DNA of 64,000 nt from IMG/VR virus record IMGVR_UViG_3300037484_000317. One strand, given 5' to 3'. The notes under the pieces were generated by a model, which made no database searches, was not told the origin of the DNA, and was given only the letters and a program-made list of their open reading frames with translations. The translations under genes and the position numbers were made by a program. Source of the stretch: a virus (taxonomy: Duplodnaviria > Heunggongvirae > Uroviricota > Caudoviricetes). This document shows positions 5,704 to 55,032 of this stretch, piece by piece (within the stretch, counting starts at the first letter, position 1; the number at the start of each line of letters is the position of its first letter).

Positions 5704-6663
5704 TTGATGATGGAAATGTTCTTGAACAACAAGTACACCAACTGGTATTCCGCCCTGATCGAACAGGTGAGGGCTGAGAATCGAAAGCGAATCCATCCCT
5801 ATCAGTACCATTCTCACCATTCAATCCCGAAATGTTTTGGGGGAGGCGGTGGCGAGAATCTTGTGCTCCTTACCCCCAGGGAGCACTACATTTGTCATCT
5901 TCTTCTTGTTAGGATGACAGAAGGTACCGCTCGGTCGAAGATGGTTTACGCCCTCTTTCACTTCAAACCGAAAGAGGGCGGTGTAACCTCATCACTTGCC
6001 TTCGAGGCACATTTGAAACGTCTCGGACGTTACGTCAAACCCCACTCTGTCGAGACTCGAAAGAAGATTAGCGATTCAAATCTAGGACGGGTCAAAACGC
6101 AAGAAGAGCGTGCTAACATCCGACGAAGTCGCCTCGGCAGGAAACACTCTGAGGAATCTCGGATGAAGATGAGCCTATCCGGGCGAATGAAACGACCTTG
6201 GAATGCGCGGAAAGCAACCCCAGAGGCACGAGCTAAGATGAGCGCTGCCGCCAAGGGTCGAAAATCCCCCATGGAAGGAAAGACGCATTCCGAAGAGACT
6301 CGGCGGAAGATGTCCGCTGCAAGTACAGGAAAGATTCAGTCCCCAGAGACCATAGAGAAACGTAGGCTTTCCCTTTTAGGGAAGACTCGAACCCCAGAAC
6401 AGAAACTGCGGATTTCTCTCTCCCTAACAGGGAAACGACCTACGGAAGAAACAAAGGCGAAAATGAGAGTCGCTAAGTTGGGGACACATCATTCTCAAGA
6501 AACGAAGGATAAGATGAGGGCAGCACACAGACATCATTCCCAGGAAACGAAGGATAAGATGAGGGCAGCACATAGGGCGCGTCGAACAAGGATTCAATTG
6601 AGAGAGGTCCCCGAGCAAGTCGAGGTCTTGGATCCGTTCGGGGAAAAGCCCACTCCCGATTGA
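5704..6663 (+). CDS. Free-standing HNH homing endonuclease with NUMOD3 repeats
   Basis: HHSIPKCFGG...NLVLLTPREHYICHLLL followed by many HSxETRxKMS-type repeats; 45-nt duplication at 6487-6576. Confidence 0.85.
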   Translation: MMMEMFLNNKYTNWYSALIEQVRAENRKRIHPYQYHSHHSIPKCFGGGGGENLVLLTPREHYICHLLLVRMTEGTARSKMVYALFHFKPKEGGVTSSLAFEAHLKRLGRYVKPHSVETRKKISDSNLGRVKTQEERANIRRSRLGRKHSEESRMKMSLSGRMKRPWNARKATPEARAKMSAAAKGRKSPMEGKTHSEETRRKMSAASTGKIQSPETIEKRRLSLLGKTRTPEQKLRISLSLTGKRPTEETKAKMRVAKLGTHHSQETKDKMRAAHRHHSQETKDKMRAAHRARRTRIQLREVPEQVEVLDPFGEKPTPD

Positions 6664-18805: not shown

Positions 18806-18876
18806 GGGGTTATAGCTCAGGGGTTGAGCAGCGAATTCTAAATTCGTGGAGACGGGTTCGAGTCCCGTTAACCCCA
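18806..18876 (+). tRNA. tRNA with anticodon CUA (amber suppressor type)
   Basis: Acceptor GGGGTTA/TAACCCC; D arm GCTC/GAGC; anticodon stem GCGAA/TTCGT with loop TT-CTA-AA; 4-nt variable loop; T arm ACGGG-TTCGAGT-CCCGT; discriminator A. CCA is not fully encoded (CCT). Confidence 0.9.
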
Positions 18877-18889
18877 CCTAGGAACCCAA

Positions 18890-37876: not shown

Positions 37877-38192
37877 GGCCAAGTTTCGTAAGCGTCCTGT
37901 AGTAATCGAGGCGAGCCAATGGTTCGAAAACGGAGATCATCTCTTCGCCGACGCCAACGGTGGGTCTGTGGTCAAGGGTGAAGGCAAGGTAGTCAGATAC
38001 TACCGTCGACCAGACGACCCAGGTACCCGTGAGTGCCAACATTGCGCACGCAAGATGCACGATCACGGCTGGATCGACACCCTCGAAGGTGGTCACATCG
38101 TGTGCCCGGGAGATTGGATCATCACGGGAGTTTCTAACGAAATGTACCCCTGTAAGAATGACATCTTCGTGAAGACCTATGAGCCCGTGTGA
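37875..38192 (+). CDS. Conserved phage hypothetical protein (PGDW/PGDYG-type)
   Basis: KFRKRPVVIEASQW...TLEGGHIVCPGDWIITG...YPCKNDIFVKTYE; AGGGAG RBS. Confidence 0.7.
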   Translation: MAKFRKRPVVIEASQWFENGDHLFADANGGSVVKGEGKVVRYYRRPDDPGTRECQHCARKMHDHGWIDTLEGGHIVCPGDWIITGVSNEMYPCKNDIFVKTYEPV

Positions 38193-41191
38193 TTCTTTCC
38201 TGGGTCTACCTCTCTGGTTTTCCAAAATCGCTCGATGTAAGCAAGTCACTTGCAAAACGAGCTGGTGGTAATCTGCGTGCTCGTGAGGCGATCGAGTTTA
38301 TGCGCTCCGAACGTGAGCGGCTTGGATTGACACGCATAGAACTTGAGACACGCATTTTTGGTCGGAGTGATGGGAATGTGCGTAACTGGGAGGATGGTAT
38401 CTCGATCCCTAGGCCAGGCTTGTGGCCGAAGATCCGGGAGGCTCTTGATCTTTCCAGTACACCATTTGATGCAGATATGGAACGTGGTGACACCGTAGTT
38501 GGAGAAGTAGCCGGTTCTTATGGATACCAGAAGGACGGTTTTCGGTGGACAGAAAACCATGAGCTGCGAGAACCTATTACGGATCTAGCTCGACAGTGGA
38601 CCGGCTGGGGCACAGCACTTAAGCCAGCACACGAACCCATCCTATTGTTTCAAAAGCCGTATAGTGACCAGCTTCCCGCAGAAAGCCCACCGATGACCAG
38701 TAGCCTGCTCCCTGACGACAAGACCCGCTGGGTACTCCACAACGGCAACTGCCTCGATGTACTTCGGTCGATGCCTGACGAGTCTGTGGACAGCGTCATT
38801 ACTGATCCACCCTATGGATTGTCGGGTCACAGCGCGGCCGACGTGCAGGAAGCACTAAGGGCCTGGCTCGACGGAAAGCCCTACGAGTCTGGTTCCTTAC
38901 GCAAGGGCCAAGAGAACTGCGCGACAAACATCCTCGGGAACGCCGTCATCTCGGACACGGATGGTTCTAATTCCAGCGGCCAGCAAGAAAACATCTCGTT
39001 CTCTGTCCTCAATAAGTTGTCCTCCGCTGTGTGTGTGGACAGTGTCAATCTCAATCACGAGAGCACGATTGGGGAAATAAAGGTCCGCAACGAAAGCTCC
39101 GCCATCCCATTCGAAAACGTGCTGGTAGGAGACCGAAATCCCAATCTCCCTGAGACGGGCAACAGTCACCCGTTCAGTCTCAGGAAAAGGCAAGGTTTTA
39201 CCGGCTGCGTAGGCGTATGCACCTGCCACACTGAGTCGGGTCCGTCCCTCTATCGTGTAAACGTATGGCTCCGTCACGACCCGCTTAGTGAGTCCGAGAG
39301 AGCGTCCCGCGAAGTGGCACTCACGGGAACAGAAGTTCGAGCCGTGCTTACCCTTGATGTGGCTAAGAAAACGGCGCAGATCTCTTTGACAGAGATCACA
39401 CCGGACCATGATTGCGGTCTGGTTCTGGTCCCCCCTCATCTTGTAGGAGCACTCACGGGAGCAAGTGGTCTCTCGCCCGAAACCCAATCTAGTGGGGTGA
39501 GCCTGGTAGGTGCTGCCGCAAACGGAACAGGTACAAGAAACAAGGGGGACACGTCGAATGATCCCACCACACTCCTTGCTACAGGTGCGAATACGGGTCT
39601 TCACAGCGTTGAAGGGCCTACCGCAAACTTCACAGTCCTTTTGCATACCGAGTACCTTACCAGACTTAGAAGTCCCACACTTGGTAAAAAAGGCTTCATG
39701 GGTAAGGGATGGGATGCGTTCGTACCGGGCCCCGAGGTCTGGAAAGAGTGCTTCCGGGTCCTGAAACCGGGAGGGCACCTGCTGGCATTCGCGGGGACAC
39801 GCACTCAGGACTTGATGGGGATTGCCATCCGCCTCGCTGGGTTTGACTGCCGAGATGAGATCCGTGTGGAGGGCGTACTTGCCTGGGAATTCGGAAGCGG
39901 ATTTCCGAAATCCCGCAACATCAGCAAGACTTTGGACAAGCAGGCCGGGGTGCTAGAGCACGAGGGCAAGAACATGCGGGACGTGACGGGGACCATGATG
40001 ACCCTGAAGCCCAGCATCAAGCCCTCGGAGTACGTAGCACCGGAACCCATCACTGACGATGCCAAGCAATGGGAGGGGTGGGGCACAGCTCTCAAGCCAA
40101 GTCACGAGCCCATCCTGATGTTCCGCAAGCCGATGGCCACCACAGTCGCCGAGAATGTTCAGCGGTACGGCACCGGTGCGATCAACGTAGATGGTTGCCG
40201 AGTTGAGACCATAGGACCCAGACCTGCAAGAGAGCCCTCTGGGATCGCTAGGGACGGTGACGTTTATGAGGCTGGATTAACTGGGTCCCGTGCCATTGAG
40301 GACACCATTCAGGGAAGGTGGCCTAGCAACTTAGTCCTCGTTCACACCCCCTCGTGTGTTCAGACTGGCACGCAGACTGTAGACTCCCCGGTCATCAATC
40401 GCTTCAATGACGGGATGAAGCCATTTGGTGAGGGCGCAGGCCACGCATACACCTCCGTGGGTGGGGGCCAGGAAGAGATCCCTGTTTGGGAGTGTGTAGA
40501 TGGATGTCCAGTAAAGGCCCTAGATGGTCAGAGTGGGGTTCTGACAAGCGGATCAGTGCGTCCCGGCTATATGCGCAACAGTTCCACCCAACCGAGTCGG
40601 GGCGGGTTTGAGGGTGGATTTGGAGACGCACCACTTACCGGATTCGGAGACTCGGGCGGAGCTTCCCGTTTCTTCCCACAGTTCCAGTACACGCCTGAGG
40701 ATGCCCCTTTCAGGTACGTCCCGAAGACAGGTCGCACCGAGCGCAACGAGGGGCTAGAGGGCGGACCACGGCAGCAGGTAGACGACTCTCGTGACCCTGA
40801 CGCACCGGGCGCCAACAATCCGCGCAACCGTGGTGGACGCCAGGATGAGAATCACCACTCCACGGTCAAGCCCATCGAACTCATGCGGTGGCTCATCCGG
40901 CTCGTGACGCCGCCTGGTGGGATCGTCTTGGATCCATTCAATGGCAGTGGTAGCACGGGTTGCGCGGCTATTGTCGAGGGCATGTTGTATGTGGGCATAG
41001 ACCTGGACCCCGACTACATCGAAATCTCACGGGGTCGGATTGAGTGGCACGGAATCAAGATAAAGGGTGGTTTGAAGAGGAATCCGTGGGTGGCGCCAGT
41101 GCGCACCGTTCAGGAGTCAGCAGTGCGCCCCGCTCGGAGCGCGGCTGACTTCCTGTGCGGATACGAGGACGAGGACGAGGACGACGGGTGA
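38189..41191 (+). CDS. Beta-class N4/N6 DNA methyltransferase 1, with an N-terminal duplicated HTH-bearing segment and a ~260-codon in-frame insertion
   Basis: Motif IV DPPY; GFMGKGWD; FGSGFPKS; motif I LDPFNGSG. The core probably starts at ATG 38693. Confidence 0.88.
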   Translation: MILSWVYLSGFPKSLDVSKSLAKRAGGNLRAREAIEFMRSERERLGLTRIELETRIFGRSDGNVRNWEDGISIPRPGLWPKIREALDLSSTPFDADMERGDTVVGEVAGSYGYQKDGFRWTENHELREPITDLARQWTGWGTALKPAHEPILLFQKPYSDQLPAESPPMTSSLLPDDKTRWVLHNGNCLDVLRSMPDESVDSVITDPPYGLSGHSAADVQEALRAWLDGKPYESGSLRKGQENCATNILGNAVISDTDGSNSSGQQENISFSVLNKLSSAVCVDSVNLNHESTIGEIKVRNESSAIPFENVLVGDRNPNLPETGNSHPFSLRKRQGFTGCVGVCTCHTESGPSLYRVNVWLRHDPLSESERASREVALTGTEVRAVLTLDVAKKTAQISLTEITPDHDCGLVLVPPHLVGALTGASGLSPETQSSGVSLVGAAANGTGTRNKGDTSNDPTTLLATGANTGLHSVEGPTANFTVLLHTEYLTRLRSPTLGKKGFMGKGWDAFVPGPEVWKECFRVLKPGGHLLAFAGTRTQDLMGIAIRLAGFDCRDEIRVEGVLAWEFGSGFPKSRNISKTLDKQAGVLEHEGKNMRDVTGTMMTLKPSIKPSEYVAPEPITDDAKQWEGWGTALKPSHEPILMFRKPMATTVAENVQRYGTGAINVDGCRVETIGPRPAREPSGIARDGDVYEAGLTGSRAIEDTIQGRWPSNLVLVHTPSCVQTGTQTVDSPVINRFNDGMKPFGEGAGHAYTSVGGGQEEIPVWECVDGCPVKALDGQSGVLTSGSVRPGYMRNSSTQPSRGGFEGGFGDAPLTGFGDSGGASRFFPQFQYTPEDAPFRYVPKTGRTERNEGLEGGPRQQVDDSRDPDAPGANNPRNRGGRQDENHHSTVKPIELMRWLIRLVTPPGGIVLDPFNGSGSTGCAAIVEGMLYVGIDLDPDYIEISRGRIEWHGIKIKGGLKRNPWVAPVRTVQESAVRPARSAADFLCGYEDEDEDDG
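38897..39646 (-). CDS. Zn-finger plus DUF559/Vsr-like endonuclease encoded antisense inside MTase 1
   Basis: Several CxxC and CSxEC fingers, then YQHVF...ADLYFP..ALVIEID...DRERDVFLLAAGIRTIRV. TAAGGT lies 7 nt before the ATG. Confidence 0.8.
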   Translation of the reverse strand: MQKDCEVCGRPFNAVKTRIRTCSKECGGIIRRVPLVSCTCSVCGSTYQAHPTRLGFGRETTCSRECSYKMRGDQNQTAIMVRCDLCQRDLRRFLSHIKGKHGSNFCSRECHFAGRSLGLTKRVVTEPYVYTIEGRTRLSVAGAYAYAAGKTLPFPETERVTVARLREIGISVSYQHVFEWDGGAFVADLYFPNRALVIEIDTVHTHSGGQLIEDRERDVFLLAAGIRTIRVRDDGVPEDVCRAVLLALA

Positions 41192-43234: not shown

Positions 43235-45958
43235 ATGACTGACTCTCCCTGGGTGTTGCATCACGGTGATTGCCTTGAACTGCTCAAGTCTATGGACGCA
43301 GAGTCCATAGACTCTATTGTCACTGACCCACCAGCTGGAATTCTGTTCATGTCAAAATCTTGGGACTCAGATAAGGGGAGTCGACAACAGTGGGTTGCCT
43401 GGATGGAATCCATAGCTGTTGAGTGCCTGAGGGTTTTGAAGCCCGGGGGCCATGCCCTTGTGTGGGCGCTGCCCAGAACCTCTCACTGGACGGGTTGGGC
43501 CTGGGAGAATGCAGGTTGGGAAGTTCGCGACAAGATCGTGGCCCTCTTTGGGTGCCTGAGTGAGGATACTGAAATACTCGTCAATGGTCGGTGGGAACCT
43601 TACCAAAAAGCTGTGGTAGGAAGTCTCGCCCTATGTTATGATGTTGAACATGACACTTTTGCGTGGCACGAAATCCAAGAAACGTATTGCTATCCCTACG
43701 ATGATACCGCTTTCCGAATTCAATCGGATCGTACAGATCAAATCGTCTCCAGAGCACATCGTTGCCTTGTTGAACGAGATGGAAAGTTCTCTTTCTCCTC
43801 TGCCGAAACGCTTGTGGGCGAAGAGAACGTACCCATTCTGGAAAACTTGCAAGGATTGCTTACAGCCCTTTGCTTGCCGCACGAAGGAGCAAGCGGTCCG
43901 CAACAAGATGTGCCGTGGGTGCAGTCTCAAGCAGATGTCGTTGGTGAAGAAGGGGAAGTTCCGTACACCTCCGTCCGTATGCCCAAAATGCAACAGGGAA
44001 TTCCGTTCCAAGAGTCATTTACCCGTAGCCAAAGCGAAGTTCTGCTCCAACACTTGCAAAGCACAATCCCAGATGCAAGACCCAATAGCTCTCGCAAGGA
44101 TGGCCAGGATAGCCAAGCTTGGGCGTGCGGGGTGGACGGAAGAGAGTCTGAAATCCTATCGCGAGAAGATGACAGGTCCACTCAATCCAGCCTGGAAGGG
44201 CGGGGTGACGTACTTCAGGAAGCACGGAAATTACAACGGAGTGAAGTACATTCGTTGTCCAATCGAGTTCCTTCCGATGGCTCGGAAGGATGGCTACGTG
44301 ATGGAACATCGGATCATAGTGGCGATGATAATCGGTCGTTGTCTTCTTCGGACGGAGACGGTGCATCACGAGGACCACGATCCCACGAACAATGCCCTGT
44401 TGAACCTGGCGTTGTTCAAGTCGAATCGGGATCACAAACTGTTCGAGCATCACGGTTCACCACTTCCGATTTGGCGAGGATCACTCCCTTCCACCTGACT
44501 GGGAAGGTGTGGTGTGTGAAGACCCCGACTGGCGCTTTCGTCGCTCGTCGCAACGGCAAGGTCTTTATCACAGGGAATTCGGGATTTCCGAAGTCACTTG
44601 ACGTGAGCAAGGCGATTGACAAGGCAGGCGGGTCATCTCCTGTAGAGCAGTCCAGGCTGTTACGTGAGCGACGGGAGGCGCGCGGGCTGGATCGCGCCGC
44701 TGTAGCTACAGCAGTGGGTTGCACAGAGGCTAGTGTTCGTGACTGGGAGGAGGGACGTGCCCGTGTGGTAGGGGCTGCAATAGAGTTCATTACTCCGTCC
44801 GAAGAGTACCGAACGAAACTAGCAGACTTTCTCGGGTACAGCACAGACGAGCGTCGCATCTCAGGCGTTTCCGCCGTTCGTACTTCTGACGGGACAGTGA
44901 TCGGCCTGGGTCATTCTGGTACCCTACGCGAGGGTCAAAACACAGACGCCGCGAAGCAGTGGTCCGGCTGGGGGACAGCGCTCAAGCCTGCTGGGGAAGA
45001 CTGGTGGGTATTCCGCAAGCCTCTAATCGGGACTGTCGCAGCGAATGTACTTGCGCACGGGACGGGTGGGATCAACATTGATGGGTGTCGGATCGGCACA
45101 ACGAAGAGGGTGCCTGGATCACTTTCACACACTGAGAATGCAGTGTTTGGCAAGGGTCTGGGGGGTCATTGTCAGACAGGTGAGGAAAGTGGTCACAATC
45201 CGAACGTGGGGCGTTGGCCCGCGAACGTGGTCCTCGAATGTACTTGCGACAACACGCTGCCGGGCCCCCCTGATATTGTTTCTGATCGTGTGGGAGAACC
45301 AACAGTAGCTGCCCGCTACACAGAATGTGGCGCAACAAACATCGCGGTAACTCCTGGTGAGCGGCGTAGCGGCGGGGGTGTGATCCATACGAATCCAGAG
45401 TGCCCAGCTGCAATGCTGGACGAACAGACTGGTATGATGAAAGACGGCGTTGCAGTTCAACGCAACGGTGGTGGTCAGCAAATTGGAGGCGTTGAGAAAC
45501 GTACTGGAAGCGGTAGCAAGGCCGGAGTACGAACTGACGTAGGATTTGGCGGATCTGGGGGAGCTTCCCGATTCTTCTACTGCGCCAAGGCCAGTCGATC
45601 TGAGCGCACGCACGGCGGGCAAGTAGTCAATCTGCACCCCACCGTCAAACCCATCTCTCTCATGAGGTGGTTAGTCCGCTTGATTACCCCTCCTGGAGGA
45701 ACCGTCCTCGATCCCTTTACGGGCTCTGGTTCCACGGGAGTTGCCGCCATCCTCGAAGGATTCCTCTTCGTCGGTTGCGAAAAGGAAGTGGAGTCTGTCG
45801 AGACTTCCAGGTCACGACTTGAAATGGCTACCCTAGTCGCAAGCGGGGGAGTCAAGAATCCTTGGGAAGACGACCCACGGGAAGTCACTCCCATTCCCAC
45901 GCTCCCATCTGGACCAATCTCAGTTGAATCCATGTTCGGATTCGGAGACGATGAATGA
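43235..45958 (+). CDS. Beta-class N4/N6 DNA methyltransferase 2, containing an intein and an XRE-type HTH insert
   Basis: DPPA motif IV variant; ILFMSKSWD; motif I LDPFTGSG. Splicing would restore FG/SGFPKS. Confidence 0.88.
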   Translation: MTDSPWVLHHGDCLELLKSMDAESIDSIVTDPPAGILFMSKSWDSDKGSRQQWVAWMESIAVECLRVLKPGGHALVWALPRTSHWTGWAWENAGWEVRDKIVALFGCLSEDTEILVNGRWEPYQKAVVGSLALCYDVEHDTFAWHEIQETYCYPYDDTAFRIQSDRTDQIVSRAHRCLVERDGKFSFSSAETLVGEENVPILENLQGLLTALCLPHEGASGPQQDVPWVQSQADVVGEEGEVPYTSVRMPKMQQGIPFQESFTRSQSEVLLQHLQSTIPDARPNSSRKDGQDSQAWACGVDGRESEILSREDDRSTQSSLEGRGDVLQEARKLQRSEVHSLSNRVPSDGSEGWLRDGTSDHSGDDNRSLSSSDGDGASRGPRSHEQCPVEPGVVQVESGSQTVRASRFTTSDLARITPFHLTGKVWCVKTPTGAFVARRNGKVFITGNSGFPKSLDVSKAIDKAGGSSPVEQSRLLRERREARGLDRAAVATAVGCTEASVRDWEEGRARVVGAAIEFITPSEEYRTKLADFLGYSTDERRISGVSAVRTSDGTVIGLGHSGTLREGQNTDAAKQWSGWGTALKPAGEDWWVFRKPLIGTVAANVLAHGTGGINIDGCRIGTTKRVPGSLSHTENAVFGKGLGGHCQTGEESGHNPNVGRWPANVVLECTCDNTLPGPPDIVSDRVGEPTVAARYTECGATNIAVTPGERRSGGGVIHTNPECPAAMLDEQTGMMKDGVAVQRNGGGQQIGGVEKRTGSGSKAGVRTDVGFGGSGGASRFFYCAKASRSERTHGGQVVNLHPTVKPISLMRWLVRLITPPGGTVLDPFTGSGSTGVAAILEGFLFVGCEKEVESVETSRSRLEMATLVASGGVKNPWEDDPREVTPIPTLPSGPISVESMFGFGDDE
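43553..44578 (+). mobile_element. Contiguous intein (342 aa) in MTase 2
   Basis: Block A CLSEDTEILVNGRW; block B QIVSRAHR; block F GKVWCVKTPTGAF; block G RRNGKVFITGN followed by Ser+1. Confidence 0.88.
43638..44498 (+). CDS. Zn-finger plus HNH homing endonuclease in the +1 frame inside the intein
   Basis: CxxC fingers; NPAWKGG; GYVMEHR...VHHEDHDPTNNALLNL...H. Likely start ATG 43701 or 43779. Confidence 0.85.
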   Translation: MMLNMTLLRGTKSKKRIAIPTMIPLSEFNRIVQIKSSPEHIVALLNEMESSLSPLPKRLWAKRTYPFWKTCKDCLQPFACRTKEQAVRNKMCRGCSLKQMSLVKKGKFRTPPSVCPKCNREFRSKSHLPVAKAKFCSNTCKAQSQMQDPIALARMARIAKLGRAGWTEESLKSYREKMTGPLNPAWKGGVTYFRKHGNYNGVKYIRCPIEFLPMARKDGYVMEHRIIVAMIIGRCLLRTETVHHEDHDPTNNALLNLALFKSNRDHKLFEHHGSPLPIWRGSLPST

Positions 45959-49355: not shown

Positions 49356-49462
49356 GGTACAGTGCATGCCGCACGACTGGACCTAGTTCGTGGGATGCTT
49401 TAGGAAGCTGATTCGATTTTTGACCCTATCGCACAGCTATGTGCAGGGAGTCCACCTTCAAA

Positions 49463-49960
49463 ATGTCAGACCAAGCACTTCGCAGCCGCCTCATCCGCCT
49501 CGCACACAGAAAGCCCGAGCTGAGGCCAGTGTTGCTTCCCATGCTGGCGAACGGAACCCGCACGGCGGCAGATCATGGTGTGTCGGTTCGGTACCACATT
49601 GAAAATGGACTTCTGGGCATCGTTGAGGTGATTGCCCTTGACCTTAGCAAGGAATTTTCCGAGTCCATCCGATTCAGAGTTCCCTCTATCTCAAGTCGAA
49701 TGCAGGCTTCCGTTGAGGGTGCGATTGAGTGGCTTCCTGACCCCTCTCAAAAGGGATACATCCTGATCAGCTTTAGACTAGACCAGTTTGACCTACACAA
49801 AGCCGAGATCTTCCTCAGTATGGACCTACCCAGTGGGAAGAGCTTTCAAAAGAGCTTCAACGCAGGGTCCGATTGGTTAGCGAGGCCAGCTCGGACAAAT
49901 GGTGTGAATTTCGCGAGGGCCTTGAAGGGTTGGATTGATAGCTTCTTCATGAGTGCCTGA
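49463..49960 (+). CDS. Leader-family protein 1
   Basis: MSDQALRSRLIRLAHRKPELRPVLLPML. Confidence 0.75.
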   Translation: MSDQALRSRLIRLAHRKPELRPVLLPMLANGTRTAADHGVSVRYHIENGLLGIVEVIALDLSKEFSESIRFRVPSISSRMQASVEGAIEWLPDPSQKGYILISFRLDQFDLHKAEIFLSMDLPSGKSFQKSFNAGSDWLARPARTNGVNFARALKGWIDSFFMSA

Positions 49961-49970
49961 TTGGCCCCTA

Positions 49971-50492
49971 ATGTCTAGAAATCTCCGATCTAAACTCATT
50001 CGCCTTGCCAACAGCAAGCCAGAACTTCGGCCAACGCTCCTTCCCTTGCTTAAGGAAGCTGCTTGGGAAGATGGCGATGCCCTGAAGCTGAAACTGATTG
50101 AAACCTTTCCTAACGAGGAAGATGGAACTGAAGGTCGGGTATTCGACCTTGGGCATCAAGGATACAGCGCAATGCTCTTTGACGTTGACTCTGGCAATAC
50201 GGTTGGAGGGCGCATTTACCCACGTGAGATGAAGCAGAAAGCACTCGACTACGCTAAGAAGATAGCACAAGGTGGGGGCGGTAGCATCCTTCGTCTAGCT
50301 GGCGGAAAGTCAGACAAGAGGGATGTGGAAGAAGGGCTCATGGCCTACCACAATTCCGCCCTCAGCAAGTTCGATGTTACGGCTCAGCAGTTTGGACGTA
50401 AGTTCCATGCCATTGCCTCGAAGTTGAGGCTGAACGATGATGCACGTGCGGCCCTCTGGCGCTACATCACTGACATTTCATACGAGGTATAG
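49971..50492 (+). CDS. Leader-family protein 2
   Basis: MSRNLRSKLIRLANSKPELRPTLLPLLKEAA. Confidence 0.75.
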   Translation: MSRNLRSKLIRLANSKPELRPTLLPLLKEAAWEDGDALKLKLIETFPNEEDGTEGRVFDLGHQGYSAMLFDVDSGNTVGGRIYPREMKQKALDYAKKIAQGGGGSILRLAGGKSDKRDVEEGLMAYHNSALSKFDVTAQQFGRKFHAIASKLRLNDDARAALWRYITDISYEV

Positions 50493-50500
50493 GGTCTCCC

Positions 50501-50890
50501 ATGTCTAATCTACGTAGCAGCCTCATCCGCCTCGCACATGCTAATCCCGCACTCCGGGCCGATCTACTCCCACTACTCCGTGAGGCGGGCTGTGAGAAGC
50601 TCCCAGAGGGTGGCATGAGGGACAACTGCGAGAAGAAGGTAGAAGAGGGCAAGGATAAGCCTGAGAAGGAAGCCGCCCCCCCTGCCAAGCTCAAAGGCAA
50701 AAAGCTGGACAAGGCGATCGAGAAGGCATACTACCACCATGGCAGTGGCATCCAGATTGACATGATGAGCATTCCCAAGATCTTCAGGGAAGGCGTGAAG
50801 GCTTACCAGGACGCGGCTACGGTGGAAGAGGCTGAAAAGGCGTTGGATGAGGCAATGAAAGCCGCCGTTGTCAAGTACCGGGTCAGCTGA
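50501..50890 (+). CDS. Leader-family protein 3
   Basis: MSNLRSSLIRLAHANPALRADLLPLLREAG. Confidence 0.75.
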   Translation: MSNLRSSLIRLAHANPALRADLLPLLREAGCEKLPEGGMRDNCEKKVEEGKDKPEKEAAPPAKLKGKKLDKAIEKAYYHHGSGIQIDMMSIPKIFREGVKAYQDAATVEEAEKALDEAMKAAVVKYRVS

Positions 50891-50905
50891 AGGGGGGAGA
50901 TGTAA

Positions 50906-51691
50906 ATGGCAGTAGCATTTCTACCGGGAACAGTACTTGGACAAGGGGATCTTGACATCTTCTTGACGAACGCGGATGGGGATCCGGCGAACGCCTATGA
51001 GATTACCTATGCAATCTACTTCGTATCACCGGGCCCCCCAGAGTCAGAAGTCCTGATTGGGAGTGCAACACGTATCCCTCTCAATCCAAATGTCGGAGAA
51101 TACTATGCCTCCCTGCAAGTACCGACCAACGCCACCGTAGGCACCTACCGCATCCGTTGGAGCTTCAAGCAGTTTGCTTCTAGTGCCGTCCAACAGGTCG
51201 TACAGGAGTGGGCCGTCGTCGGAGCGGGCGTTGTTGCCGTGCCTGTCTACTCTGTCTCACAGGCGTCGATGATCGGTAAGTTGAGGGTGCTTTTGAGAGA
51301 CCAGGCCCCAGATAAATTCTACCATTTCAGACCACCTGAGTCCGAGGGGAATATCGGTGCGTACAGCCAGGTTTTCGGTCAGATCTGGGAAGACGCTGAG
51401 CTGCTTGAGTACCTAGAACGTGGATTGGACTGGTGGAACATGTTTCCACCCACAACTCCCGATCTGGAAACCATCGACAAGCTCGTTACCGAGAAGGCAG
51501 TCTGGCGTACCGCCATCCTCTGGGAGGCAATCTCTCATGCGTGCTTTGCCCTAGCAATGAACTGGACTGCGGATGAATTTTCACTGGTCTCAAGCACTCT
51601 TATCACTGTGGTACTTCCTGATGGACGGGAAGTAGAAATTACCATCGGGGAACTTTACGAGCTACACTGCGAAAATGGCCGGACTCTCTAA
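50906..51691 (+). CDS. N-part of a putative neck/head-tail adaptor protein (Ig-like N-domain) fused to a 36-aa N-intein
   Basis: Ends ...WTADEF/SLVSSTLITVVLPDGREVEITIGELYE... (intein block A, 51581-51688), then TAA. Confidence 0.75.
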   Translation: MAVAFLPGTVLGQGDLDIFLTNADGDPANAYEITYAIYFVSPGPPESEVLIGSATRIPLNPNVGEYYASLQVPTNATVGTYRIRWSFKQFASSAVQQVVQEWAVVGAGVVAVPVYSVSQASMIGKLRVLLRDQAPDKFYHFRPPESEGNIGAYSQVFGQIWEDAELLEYLERGLDWWNMFPPTTPDLETIDKLVTEKAVWRTAILWEAISHACFALAMNWTADEFSLVSSTLITVVLPDGREVEITIGELYELHCENGRTL

Positions 51692-52640
51692 ACTCCAAGT
51701 AACAAAGCGCTATGGGTTCAACTTCAGGTGGATTGAAGAACTCATCGATCGCGGACTTGTGACATGTCTTCCAGGATGTACCCCCCTCCGCCAGAAGATT
51801 TCCCATGAGTCTATTGAGTCACTTGTGGAAAATGCCCATTACGTCAAGTGTATTGGGTGCGGGATGCGTGCCGGGCAGATCACTACGAAGCACGTTAAAT
51901 CCTGTTCTGGCATCTCCCTTTCGGAGTATGCTGCTCGATATCCAGGGGCACTTATTCTGTGCGATCTTGCATCGGAAAACAGAGAGAAGACTGAGGTTCA
52001 GAAACAAGCCCAGTCCAAGAAACTCAAGGCCAGATTTCAGACACCAGCAGGTGAGGTCACACGCTCGCAGATAGGGAAATCGGCTAAGCGGATGCAAGCC
52101 TCTGAATCTGGCGATCGATCCAAAGCGCATCTGGTAAAACTCAACTCAGATCCTGTACGAAAAAAGCAAATCTCTCAAGAGACAAAGTCCAGATGGGACT
52201 CAGGTGAAGCTCGGGAGCACGTCGAAGGTTGGCATCGAGACAACAAAGAACAGTCCAACTCCCTGATTGCAAATGCGCGCTCCTTCAACCGACGCAAGAG
52301 GACAAAGCTCCACCTAGGGTTCAAAGAACTCATGGTATCCTCTGGTATTTTGGGATTCCAAACGGAATACAGAGTTGGGTACTTCTCGATTGACGAGGCC
52401 CTGCCTGGAAAGCGGTTGTCCCTAGAGATAGATGGGTGCTACTGGCACTCGTGTCCTCAATGTGGGCTCAAGGGTCCTTCGGATAATCGGAGGACAGACA
52501 AGTCCAAGGCCACCTATCTGGCCAACAGAGGCTGGTTGGTGCTCCGCCTATGGGAGCATGAGATTAAAAGGGATCCGGATGGGTGTCTGGCTAGGGTCAG
52601 AGCATTTGTTCAAAGTCGGGAGAAACTGTCGTATGCTTGA
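51675..52640 (+). CDS. Free-standing Vsr/DUF559-like homing endonuclease between the split-intein halves
   Basis: EYRVGYFSIDEA...LEIDGCYWHSC...GWLVLRLWEHEI; N-terminal CxxC finger. Confidence 0.82.
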   Translation: MAGLSKLQVTKRYGFNFRWIEELIDRGLVTCLPGCTPLRQKISHESIESLVENAHYVKCIGCGMRAGQITTKHVKSCSGISLSEYAARYPGALILCDLASENREKTEVQKQAQSKKLKARFQTPAGEVTRSQIGKSAKRMQASESGDRSKAHLVKLNSDPVRKKQISQETKSRWDSGEAREHVEGWHRDNKEQSNSLIANARSFNRRKRTKLHLGFKELMVSSGILGFQTEYRVGYFSIDEALPGKRLSLEIDGCYWHSCPQCGLKGPSDNRRTDKSKATYLANRGWLVLRLWEHEIKRDPDGCLARVRAFVQSREKLSYA

Positions 52641-53322
52641 CAATGAGACACGAGAAGATCTTAGGTCTGCCCTAAGATCTGGAACCCTCAAGGCCCGCAC
52701 TGTAGACTCAGTGACAGGTTTGGTCTCTGACCGGCCAATCACCTCTGTCCTCCGTCACCACACCCCCCACAAGCCCTTAGTGCAAGTGACCTTAGTGAAC
52801 GGAGCCTCTGTGACGTGCACTGAGGATCACAGCCTATTTGAGCCTCAGGGAGTGGGGGTTGTCCCTGTGGCTGCCGGAGATCTTTGTGTTGGTTCCCCTA
52901 TCACTACTGTGAGGGGCGATAAAGCGGCATTTGAAGACACTGCGTCAGTGCTCCATCTCCCACCCGAAGAATACACCTACGATTTGTCAGTCCCAGGCCC
53001 ACAGAATTTCATGTTGTCAAATGGAATCCTGGCCCACAACTCATATTCCATCGGCGGAATTAGCTTGGACATTGAGAAGTCTTCCAAGTACGAGAGCCTC
53101 AAGCAGAACGCCGAGTCCCAGTTCGACAAAGCCACTGAGGCCAAGGCCCGAACTGTTAAATTCATCAGGGGATTGCAGCAGCCCAAGTACGGGATTGGCG
53201 TGCGAAGTGCATTTGGTCCAAATGTGGGTAGAGGGGTTTTGAGTCCTAGATCGTTCTTGGTTTTTCCTTTCATTCTAGGGGTTTTCAGTCTGCTATCTCA
53301 GTTCCATAGTGTGCTTTCCTAG
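52633..53322 (+). CDS. 136-aa C-intein fused to the C-part of the putative neck protein
   Basis: Block B TCTEDHSLF; block F YTYDLSVPG; block G ILAHN, followed by SYSIGGISLDIEKSSKYESLK. The ATG overlaps the upstream stop. Confidence 0.85.
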   Translation: MLDNETREDLRSALRSGTLKARTVDSVTGLVSDRPITSVLRHHTPHKPLVQVTLVNGASVTCTEDHSLFEPQGVGVVPVAAGDLCVGSPITTVRGDKAAFEDTASVLHLPPEEYTYDLSVPGPQNFMLSNGILAHNSYSIGGISLDIEKSSKYESLKQNAESQFDKATEAKARTVKFIRGLQQPKYGIGVRSAFGPNVGRGVLSPRSFLVFPFILGVFSLLSQFHSVLS

Positions 53323-53403
53323 CAAGCAGGTGTGTTTCTTCAACTCCCTCCTTCAGGAGCGTGCGGAGGTAGAAGCCTAGTGGGGCTATAGAAGGTCAAG
53401 GTC

Positions 53404-53721
53404 ATGGGACTCTCTGACAAGACTCTTCGATCTGCCTGCATCCGGCTAGCACAAGCCAACCTCGAACTCCGAGCCCACCTTCTCCCTTTGCTCACTGGAG
53501 TCAAGGTCGCTGGGGGGGCATCCCTGTTCAAGGAGTTCATGGCGGAGTTGGAGATCATCCGCCGAATGGGGAAGATTCTCGATACCCACCGTGCCTTTGG
53601 TTCCCGTGATACCGAGCCCGAGGGCGTCGTAATCGACGTACTTGAGAGCTACTTGAAGCTCTATCTGTATCGTGGGGACTTCCCAAAGACCTACGACTCT
53701 CTGGACCGTGGGTACCTGTGA
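53404..53721 (+). CDS. Leader-family protein 4
   Basis: MGLSDKTLRSACIRLAQANLELRAHLLPLL. Confidence 0.72.
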   Translation: MGLSDKTLRSACIRLAQANLELRAHLLPLLTGVKVAGGASLFKEFMAELEIIRRMGKILDTHRAFGSRDTEPEGVVIDVLESYLKLYLYRGDFPKTYDSLDRGYL

Positions 53722-53724
53722 GTC

Positions 53725-55032
53725 ATGGGACTCTGGGATGACGCACTTGGGGATGTTCGGCAGTTCAACAAACTGCACGCACAGGTCGAACGTTCTGCGG
53801 ATACAGTGACATTGCGCAAGTCCCTACGGGGCATGAGCAAGCTAGTCCAGTTCCAAATCTGGGTGAAGAAGTGTTGCACCCCAGACACGTACGCGTCGTA
53901 CTTGGACTCTGCGCGCGAGATGACTCGTCTGGTCAAGGAACCCACTGCGGGGGATGAGGCGCTCCGCGCTTCTATCGAACGTGTTATGCAGGAGGTGCGG
54001 AAGGCACTTGCCAGTACGGCGCACGAGACGTTCAACTACTCAGGCTTCCACATTTGGAATCCGGAGCGTTTTGCGGAAGTGCTGTGCATGAAGACCCTCA
54101 GGGGCCTGGACTACCTCAGGGGGCTCCTTCGGAAGCGTGGGGTAGAGAACCTGATCGAAGGGGCAGTGTCCCAAGTCAATCTCGTCCTGGACGCAGGGGC
54201 CACCGCATTCTTCCACTCCACGACAAGGGAGCTGACCCTCTCTGTTCCAGAGCTGTCTGGGGAAAAGCCCAGCAGGATTGTGGACAGCTTTGCAGGGGAG
54301 ACTGTCCTGCACGAGTTCGGTCACTACGTGCATCGTGTCTTTCTCAAGGGAGAGGCGGCAGAGGCGTGGAATGCCCCTTGGGAAGGGATAGCGGATGCTG
54401 CCGAATGGAAGAGGCCGACAGAGGGCGCACGTGACCCACGGCTTGAGGCCCTAGAGATCCCTACTGACTACGGGCGCACTGACAAGTACGAGGACTTCGC
54501 AGAGACCTTCATGCTGTTCGTAGCCTCCCCCGAGAAGCTCTCCCCCACAGCCAAGTTCAGGATGCAGCGAGCCCTGTCCCTCTCAGGACTCTACGGCAAG
54601 CCTGTGATGCGCCTTGCTGAACTCAATGACCGTGTAGTCCGGCGGTACACATCCGCGTCACGGGCGAAGATGCCAGTCGGGTCAAAGACACCCTATCTGT
54701 TCAATCTAGACCCGCACGCACTTGTTTTCACTGAGACAGGACAGGATAACGTGTCCACGTACGAGGGAGATCGGTCAAAGCCGATCCTCGTGTATGAGGA
54801 CAAGGAAGGCAACCTGTTTGTTTTGGATGGGCATCACCGAACGTTGATCGCTCGCAAAGAAAACAGGCGAGTACGTGGCGTCGTGATGCCAGAACATGTG
54901 TACCGGAAGTTCGTGCGCGAAGGTGTCCATCAATCAGAGATGTTTCGCGAGTTCGCACGATACTCATCAGAGCATCGGGACATGGTGGGGTCCGTGGTCC
55001 GACGGTACGCGGGCGTCAAACCCCAAGCATAA
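53725..55032 (+). CDS. Zincin (HExxH...E, anthrax-LF-like) peptidase fused to a ParB/Srx-like domain
   Basis: VLHEFGH and YEDFAETF; C-terminal LFVLDGHHR. Confidence 0.65.
   Translation: MGLWDDALGDVRQFNKLHAQVERSADTVTLRKSLRGMSKLVQFQIWVKKCCTPDTYASYLDSAREMTRLVKEPTAGDEALRASIERVMQEVRKALASTAHETFNYSGFHIWNPERFAEVLCMKTLRGLDYLRGLLRKRGVENLIEGAVSQVNLVLDAGATAFFHSTTRELTLSVPELSGEKPSRIVDSFAGETVLHEFGHYVHRVFLKGEAAEAWNAPWEGIADAAEWKRPTEGARDPRLEALEIPTDYGRTDKYEDFAETFMLFVASPEKLSPTAKFRMQRALSLSGLYGKPVMRLAELNDRVVRRYTSASRAKMPVGSKTPYLFNLDPHALVFTETGQDNVSTYEGDRSKPILVYEDKEGNLFVLDGHHRTLIARKENRRVRGVVMPEHVYRKFVREGVHQSEMFREFARYSSEHRDMVGSVVRRYAGVKPQA

Follow-up and report, generated by a model that had tools for sequence, protein, structure and literature searches.

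Fractured genes were described by Dassa et al. in 2009 (PMC2677866). In the parts of that paper drawn on here, the two halves of such a gene (gp41-1, NrdJ-1, IMPDH-1, and others) lie on the same strand and carry the parts of a split intein, with a free-standing GIY-YIG or Vsr-like open reading frame (ORF) between them. They occur mainly in phages. Half of them contain a Vsr-like free-standing endonuclease. The 3' end of the nuclease gene overlaps the start of the C-terminal intein part (IntC) by 6-69 bp and supplies its initiation signals. The host genes encode enzymes of DNA synthesis and repair. Here we describe a locus of this layout at positions 50906-53322 of IMGVR_UViG_3300037484_000317, a stretch of 64,000 nt from a virus of the class Caudoviricetes (hereafter the window). 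The locus agrees with the published criteria for fractured genes, as these are given in the same parts of PMC2677866, and the overlap between its nuclease gene and IntC is 8 nt. It differs from the genes described there in that its host is a putative virion protein, its N-terminal intein part (IntN) is short, and both of its nucleophiles are Ser. We consider it likely that this is a genuine fractured gene, an adaptor/neck-like gene in two halves with a Ser-based split intein and a free-standing nuclease.

Two atypical split positions have been described (PMC13014065). The S2 position lies after helix alpha1 and leaves an IntN of ~25-37 aa, as in AceL and GOS TerL. The S1 position is that of VidaL and PolB16. 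The GOS TerL and AceL TerL inteins (Thiel 2014; Bachmann & Mootz 2015; via the parts of PMC13014065 cited here) resemble the window intein in their S2 split, an IntN of 25-37 aa, a long IntC, and a source in phage-like metagenomic DNA. They are described there as cysteine-dependent and reside in the large terminase, whereas the window intein has Ser at both junctions, an NX His, and a putative adaptor/neck-like host.

PolB16 OarG (PMC10189870) is, like the window intein, a natural atypically split intein with Ser1 and Ser+1. It also has an NX His after Arg/Lys and noncatalytic IntC cysteines in or near blocks B and F. It differs in its S1 split directly after beta2, its 15-aa IntN and 168-aa IntC, its PolB DNA polymerase host, and its source in a sheep-gut metagenome. 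It was absent among the sequence matches of the window IntC to PDB chains at E <= 1. The cysteine-less inteins Aes123 PolB1, CL, and CLm (9hth; PMC13014065, PMC12707363) share the Ser1/Ser+1 class 1 chemistry with the window intein. Unlike the window intein, the Aes123 intein has its natural split at the canonical site. Its version with a short IntN (CL, 26 aa) was made by engineering, and it resides in a PolB polymerase.

In PMC13014065, PMC10189870, and PMC12707363, every natural Ser1/Ser+1 split intein that is named resides in a PolB-type polymerase, and only PolB16 OarG among them is atypically split. A March 2026 paper (PMC13014065) gives PolB16 OarG as the sole known natural cysteine-less atypically split intein, describes it as a poor performer, and states that other natural candidates are lacking. 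An earlier note on the window, made from the sequence alone, had called the locus a rare combination. That description, based on the short IntN, the Ser/Ser chemistry, and the structural host, is right, with reservations: PolB16 OarG had been characterized before, short IntNs are known in TerL, and the window allele has ~25 split N-halves. The window combines individually known features (an S2 split, Ser/Ser chemistry, and a Vsr-like nuclease) in a new intein allele and a new host-gene class.

Layout of the locus

Three ORFs, all on the forward strand, occupy the entire interval (Table 1). Their start positions modulo 3 are 2, 0, and 1, and they therefore lie in three different frames. ORF1 and ORF2 overlap by 17 nt, and ORF2 and ORF3 overlap by 8 nt (ATGCTTGA). 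The coordinates, block content, three frames, and overlapping starts and stops given in the earlier note proved exact when the sequence was read again. A scan of 50400-53800 for promoters and terminators gave none above shuffled expectation, which leaves separate transcription units unsupported. Three proteins (ExtN-IntN, the nuclease, and IntC-ExtC) are probably made from one transcript.

Intein halves

IntC matched the Pfam family Intein_splicing with 46.7 bits (cut-off, 35.8; E = 3.8e-12) and TIGR01443 (intein_Cterm) with a score of 32.1 (cut-off, 15.6). It also covered positions 36-82 of the 83 positions in TIGR01445 (intein N-terminal region). IntC thus holds the latter half of the N-terminal splicing region with its block B, and ORF1 carries the first ~35 positions. 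Among PDB sequences, IntC aligned to residues ~56-166 of 168-aa mini-inteins, e.g., 6rpp and 4e2u. The 36-aa IntN and 136-aa IntC with Ser1 and Ser+1, as first read from the sequence, are borne out by these matches above curated cut-offs and by a colinear alignment to 15 contiguous inteins (see below).

Residues were compared across 19 aligned split and contiguous relatives. Position 1 of this class 1 intein is a Ser directly after F225 of the extein, and it is invariant. In block B (N3, TxxH), which reads Thr63-Glu-Asp65-His66 in IntC, the T, D, and H are invariant. Blocks F and G of IntC read ...YDLSVPGPQNF...GILAHN, with S following as the +1 residue. The block F Asp and the terminal A-H-N are invariant. 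The +1 residue is Ser in 18 of the 19 relatives and Thr in the other. The NX motif is a His preceded by Arg/Lys and located upstream of block B, and it is specific to and critical in Ser1 inteins (Pasch et al., PMC10189870). The NX His (His42 of IntC) is present in 19/19 relatives. The residue before it is R, K, Q, or E (Arg41 in the window). The intein contains Cys30 in IntN and Cys62 and Cys85 in IntC. None of these is catalytic, as the earlier note had said of its cysteines, and the intein is not literally cysteine-free.

A contiguous relative with 49% identity to the window intein was modeled as a HINT domain with a predicted local distance difference test score (pLDDT) of 95.4. The model contains beta strands at 7-11 and 17-21, helix alpha1 at 22-30, a low-confidence loop at 31-40, helix alpha2 at 41-52, and a beta-rich core. 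Foldseek matched it to solved inteins with E values down to 3e-11. The cysteine-less Aes123 PolB1 intein 9hth was among the matches (template modeling score, ~0.72; 24% identity). The split point of the window intein maps to the loop at 31-40, between alpha1 and alpha2. By this model the window intein is an atypically split intein of the S2 type, not the S1 type, with an IntN of 36 aa.

The predicted complex of IntN and IntC had an interface score (ipSAE) of 0.91 (best control, 0.02), which describes likeness and not binding and may partly reflect memory of the fold, since inteins are common among solved structures. This mark is attained by 58 of 80 solved complexes and by 2 of 110 mismatched pairs. 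Contacts agreed between runs by at least 99%, and the pLDDT of the partners was at least 88. IntC residues 38-42 contact IntN in the model.

Alleles at the insertion site

With the N-extein as query, 840 homologues were retrieved. Most are 295-301 aa long and read without interruption as ...NW(V/T)ADEF-DYSIGG(V/I)SL.... About 300 were fetched, and 104 of these have an empty site, with D as the +1 residue in 81 and S in 12. The intein-free homologues are continuous over the junction, so trans-splicing in the window would restore a native-like sequence. Alignment with such homologues had been proposed as a check on the earlier note, and the junction that it predicted, ADEF-SYSIGG, matches their uninterrupted sequence. 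The insertion site is the most conserved stretch of the family. F225, the -1 residue, does not vary, and conservation is at least 90% at Y227, S228, and G231. An AlphaFold model places the site at the first strand of a beta-hairpin, in line with the hairpin that had been read at the junction.

A contiguous mini-intein occupies this site in at least 15 homologues. Fifteen were aligned. They are 157-185 aa long and have Ser1 together with Ser+1 (in one, Thr+1). The joined IntN and IntC of the window are colinear with all 15 (29-49% identity), with the break in a loop of variable length. About 25 database (metagenome) proteins terminate after a Ser1 IntN of 29-41 aa. The split allele is therefore not a singleton.

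Contigs of relatives were fetched from different samples: L002 from ENA and L003 (a 193-kb contig) and L004 from Logan. All three contain the same three ORFs, with a middle DUF559 protein of 322-327 aa, +1/+1 frame steps, and a nuclease/IntC overlap of 8-11 nt. Their inteins are 84% (L002), 54% (L003), and 42% (L004) identical to that of the window. By gene calls, the pieces are ordered alike in two other contigs, L005 and L006, where a DUF559 ORF parts IntN from IntC at this site. The site is split by a DUF559 ORF in all five of these further assemblies, and frames and overlaps match in the three that were aligned. The frames were verified through these independent assemblies. The fractured gene with its split intein and Vsr-like endonuclease, which had been noticed in the window, is supported by the same three-ORF layout in L002, L003, and L004.

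Intervening nuclease and selection

ORF2 matched the Pfam family DUF559 with 24.4 bits (gathering cut-off, 20.6) and also matched MTES_1575 and Vsr. Its match to TIGR00632 (vsr), with E = 1.3e-7, covered profile positions 17-119 and scored below the cut-off of that profile. It also matched PHROG families annotated as homing endonuclease and, among solved structures, 3hrl (E = 0.02). An E-x-D-G-x-x-W-H motif was spotted by eye. No second copy of ORF2 was found in the window by tblastn at E < 0.01. The profile matches and the overlap with the IntC start fit the Vsr-like free-standing endonucleases of PMC2677866. I-Bth0305I and other Vsr-like homing endonucleases (3r3p; PMC3239194), a family of which ORF2 is a candidate member, resemble ORF2 in having a C-terminal Vsr/DUF559-type PD-(D/E)xK domain after a long N-terminal region, and they are free-standing in fractured genes.

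Selection was compared between the window and L002. The ratio of nonsynonymous to synonymous change (dN/dS) was 0.08 for IntC and 0.09 for the nuclease. These low values indicate that the intein and the nuclease are both kept by purifying selection. Nucleotide identity was 80-84% in the IntN-nuclease-IntC cassette and 69-72% in the exteins. Synonymous differences (pS) were 0.26-0.56 and unsaturated in the cassette and 0.77-0.89 and saturated in the exteins. By these comparisons the cassette seems to have spread later than the host gene diverged, as homing predicts.

Host protein

The protein that carries the split intein is probably adaptor/neck-like. An intein-free homologue with 80% identity (P0010) was modeled with a pLDDT of 80.5. 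The model contains a beta-sandwich (residues 1-104), a helical domain (117-223), a beta-hairpin that begins at the insertion site (226-235), a long helix (238-262), and a flexible tail. A flexible C-terminal tail is typical of phage adaptors. An exhaustive VIA-align comparison matched the N-terminal domain to macroglobulin/Ig-like sandwiches. About 14 of its best 50 structural matches were adaptor, head-to-tail, or neck chains from unrelated phages, all over residues ~116-280. These ~14 chains aligned over 99-129 residues with Z scores of 8-10.1, and Z scores of 8-10 are rated "middling" by the method. Among the scores were 10.1 for cyanophage A4, 9.9 for GP4, 9.7 for SU10, 9.7 for KHP30, 9.2 for T4 gp13/gp14 (9lu4_D), 8.2 for the phage 812 neck, and 7.3 for the Mu neck subunit. 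By chain, examples are 10.1 for 9k09_d, 9.9 for 8jov_2, 9.7 for 7z47_A, and 9.2 for 9lu4_D.

Sequence profiles gave fainter signals. PHROG 17327 (head-tail connector) was matched by 6 of 44 family members, with a best E value of 8.6e-6. The profile of the 44 homologues gave only noise against PDB sequences. A 26%-identical homologue in the Tunturiibacter phage Tunturi_5 (309 kb, jumbo) is annotated as a head-tail connector and is followed, 5-7 kb downstream, by genes with the annotations minor tail protein and tail terminator. The neck or adaptor identity that had been read from the sequence alone is thus upheld by the fold and, more weakly, by the profiles. It did not extend to a family match for the window protein itself.

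Contigs bearing homologues reach 528 kb, and the window protein is on a contig of 160.8 kb. The source is probably a jumbo or huge phage. The window protein has a hydrophobic C-terminal extension of 20 aa (53260-53319) after the conserved ...SPRSFL end. The extension is also present in L003, P0022, P0044, P0127, P0129, and P0139. It is absent in L002, L004, and most other homologues.

Second insertion site and three-piece relatives

A second insertion site of the gene, site a, reads LRDQ/C...N/(C/S)PDKFY (slashes outside the parentheses mark the intein ends). It is empty in the window and holds contiguous and split Cys1 inteins in relatives. Classification of site a by regular expression gave several false calls of a split C-half in intein-free proteins, and the cases used here are limited to those inspected by eye or by locus. 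The neck-like gene is in three pieces in L005 (3573-7415 of a 96-kb contig) and L006 (3427-7365). The N piece has a 37-aa Cys1 IntN. The middle piece has IntC(a), ~91 aa of extein, and a Ser1 IntN(b) of 33 aa. The C piece consists of IntC(b) and the C-extein. The pieces are parted by two free-standing nuclease genes, one TnsA-N-like and one DUF559. On this arrangement, two atypically split inteins would need to act in tandem.

In LR745208.1, a 485-kb uncultured phage, the N-extein match at 356680-357078 halts at residue 134 and resumes elsewhere. This suggests an intein at site a.

Proposed origin and splicing pathway

The anatomy of the locus probably reflects the following course of events. 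A class 1 mini-intein with Ser1 and Ser+1 would have entered a single-copy neck-like gene at its most conserved motif, ADEF/xYSIGG. A free-standing DUF559/Vsr-like homing-endonuclease gene would then have inserted in the intein loop after alpha1. This insertion would have given the upstream half a stop codon and the downstream half a ribosome-binding site and an ATG.

We infer trans-splicing of the ORF1 and ORF3 products from conservation. The 36-aa IntN (beta1-beta2-alpha1) would dock on IntC and complete the HINT fold. Ser1 would undergo an N-O acyl shift, assisted by Thr63/His66 of block B and by the NX His42. The ester would be transferred to Ser+1. Cyclization of Asn136 and an O-N shift would then yield a protein of 318 aa with the native junction ...ADEF-SYSIGG.... 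The putative nuclease would cut intein-free alleles of co-infecting phages, and the whole IntN-nuclease-IntC cassette would be copied in. Homing by the nuclease and a virion role of the host protein are, like trans-splicing, inferred with good support.

Alternative explanations

Some observations weigh against an active fractured neck gene. ORF2 has no recognizable Shine-Dalgarno sequence upstream. Its match to the catalytic domain of I-Bth0305I (3r3p) is weak (E = 0.29), and in this it is unlike I-Bth0305I, with better scores to DUF559/MTES_1575. Split inteins of the Ser1/Ser+1 kind can splice slowly and tend to undergo side reactions with cleavage, as reported for PolB16 (PMC10189870). The host gene is single-copy in a search that covered the 64-kb window, and an intact second copy is possible elsewhere on the 160.8-kb contig. 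Such a copy would suit a locus that is a relic, with decayed intein halves and unspliced pieces. The pieces would then assemble noncovalently through intein fragments or extein surfaces, or the gene would be dead and replaced. Reassembly without splicing has a precedent in the fractured Aeh1 nrdA, as cited in the parts of PMC2677866 and PMC3045599 used here. A relic is nevertheless quite unlikely. All catalytic residues are intact and are invariant in split and contiguous relatives, IntC is under strong constraint by its dN/dS, and the split allele has been retained in lineages with intein identity as low as 42%. The single copy of the host gene within the window also argues against replacement. 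A sequencing or assembly artefact is far less probable still. Two indel errors would have to have spread one contiguous intein with an in-frame nested endonuclease over three frames. Three independent and much-diverged assemblies repeat the frame steps, stops, starts, and overlaps, which rules such an error out for practical purposes. L005 and L006 repeat the order of the pieces, ORF2 has its own ATG and stop, and many database proteins stop exactly after an IntN of 29-41 aa. At this point, contiguous relatives have just a short loop and lack a nuclease domain.

The identity of the host is the other matter to be weighed. The split intein may be real and the host another phage protein that shares the architecture of a helical bundle plus a hairpin. 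The window protein has no match in Pfam, PHROG, or NCBIfam, and BFVD matches are nearly all to unnamed proteins. Foldseek gave no match of the host-protein model to the PDB at E <= 0.001; above that threshold, the N-terminal beta-sandwich drew Ig-like matches, and a single portal-adaptor chain was matched at E = 2.3e-3. The neighboring genes in the window encode methyltransferases, nucleases, a sigma-factor-like protein, and NADAR, and none is recognizably structural. With the middling Z scores, these observations count on the side of a non-neck host. Set against them are the adaptor and neck chains among the best structural matches, all over one region, the head-tail connector matches among relatives, the tail genes downstream of the Tunturi_5 homologue, and the flexible C-terminal tail of the modeled homologue. 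We regard a non-neck host as rather unlikely and keep the adaptor/neck-like assignment.

Table 1. Features of the fractured gene in the window
Feature	Coordinates	Strand	Description	Basis
Shine-Dalgarno-like GGGGGGAG	50892..50899	+	6 nt upstream of ORF1 ATG; strong ribosome-binding site	Read from sequence
ORF1 (ExtN-IntN)	50906-51691	+	261 aa	Open reading frame
N-extein (ExtN)	50906..51580	+	225 aa; N-terminal beta-sandwich and most of helical domain; C-terminal ...NWTADEF	Homologues; fold from homologue model P0010
IntN	51581..51688	+	36 aa; Ser1, strands beta1-beta2, helix alpha1; block A / N1 alone; Cys30 noncatalytic	Alignment; model of relative
TAA stop of ORF1	51689-51691	+		Sequence
ORF2	51675..52640	+	321 aa; free-standing homing-endonuclease gene (putative); DUF559/Vsr-like PD-(D/E)xK domain at residues ~205-311	Pfam, PHROG, and TIGR matches
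GGGAG Shine-Dalgarno-like motif	52618..52622	+	Inside 3' end of nuclease gene; 10 nt upstream of ORF3 ATG	Read from sequence
ORF3 (IntC-ExtC)	ATG 52633 to 53322	+	229 aa	Open reading frame
IntC	52633..53040	+	136 aa; alpha2, NX motif Arg41-His42, block B Thr63..Asp65-His66, block F Asp117/Pro121/Phe126, block G His135-Asn136; Cys62 and Cys85 noncatalytic	Profiles; alignment
C-extein (ExtC)	53041..53322	+	93 aa from Ser+1 (SYSIGG...); beta-hairpin, long helix, flexible tail, 20-aa hydrophobic extension	Homologues; homologue model
TAG stop of ORF3	53320-53322	+		Sequence

Neighboring genes and other elements

After the TAG stop of ORF3, 22 codons ending in a second TAG share the frame of the next gene (ATG 53404). 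In L003, ORF3 also ends in TAG and is in frame with the following gene. The window contains one tRNA with a CUA anticodon (18806-18878), which ARAGORN called tRNA-Pyl. Read-through of the ORF3 TAG by this tRNA was considered and set aside. Homologues either have TAA immediately behind ...SPRSF(L/I) or share the hydrophobic tail, which suggests that the TAG is a true stop.

Four small ORFs lie near the locus, within 49439-50890 and 53404-53721 (starts at 49439, 49953, 50501, and 53404). They share the N-terminal sequence LRSxLIRLAHxxPELRPxLLPLL and continue with unrelated sequences. In L002 (6478-7950), L003 (6409-7845), and L004 (6440-7813), the gene directly downstream of the fractured gene encodes a DUF7487 protein of 457-490 aa. 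The window has different genes there. The C terminus of the L002 protein reads as Vsr/DUF559-nuclease-like (...GSYWHG...ILWEHD...), and the DUF7487 protein may represent one more endonuclease of the free-standing kind.

Two large N6/N4 DNA methyltransferase genes are present at 38189-41191 (1000 aa) and 43235-45958 (907 aa). Their profile matches are broken by long insertions. Neither gene matched an intein family at E <= 0.001 in the profile scans made. The window also encodes an IS605 OrfB/TnpB-type transposase (967-2223; PHROG 506, E = 3e-115) and a NUMOD3-type homing endonuclease (5704-6663).

Significance

Cysteine-independent split inteins with an IntN short enough for peptide synthesis are in demand. 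The window locus would add a second natural type, with an S2 split. Its relatives provide dozens of natural variants with an IntN of 29-41 aa, plus contiguous counterparts for structure-function comparison. Some relatives encode a candidate partner intein in the same gene, which may be orthogonal. We suggest, as a tentative prospect, that the family may supply redox-independent and efficient S2-type Ser1/Ser+1 split inteins. L005 and L006 pair such an intein with a Cys1 intein, and two presumably orthogonal reactions would join three pieces. Equally tentatively, splicing within the hairpin, which makes up the conserved core of the adaptor, could serve as a checkpoint and time the assembly of the neck.

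Empty, mini-intein, split, and doubly split alleles are found at one site. As a natural series, they bear on the gene-breaking model of how split inteins arise. The locus widens the range of fractured genes from enzymes of DNA metabolism to a putative protein of virion assembly in large phages.

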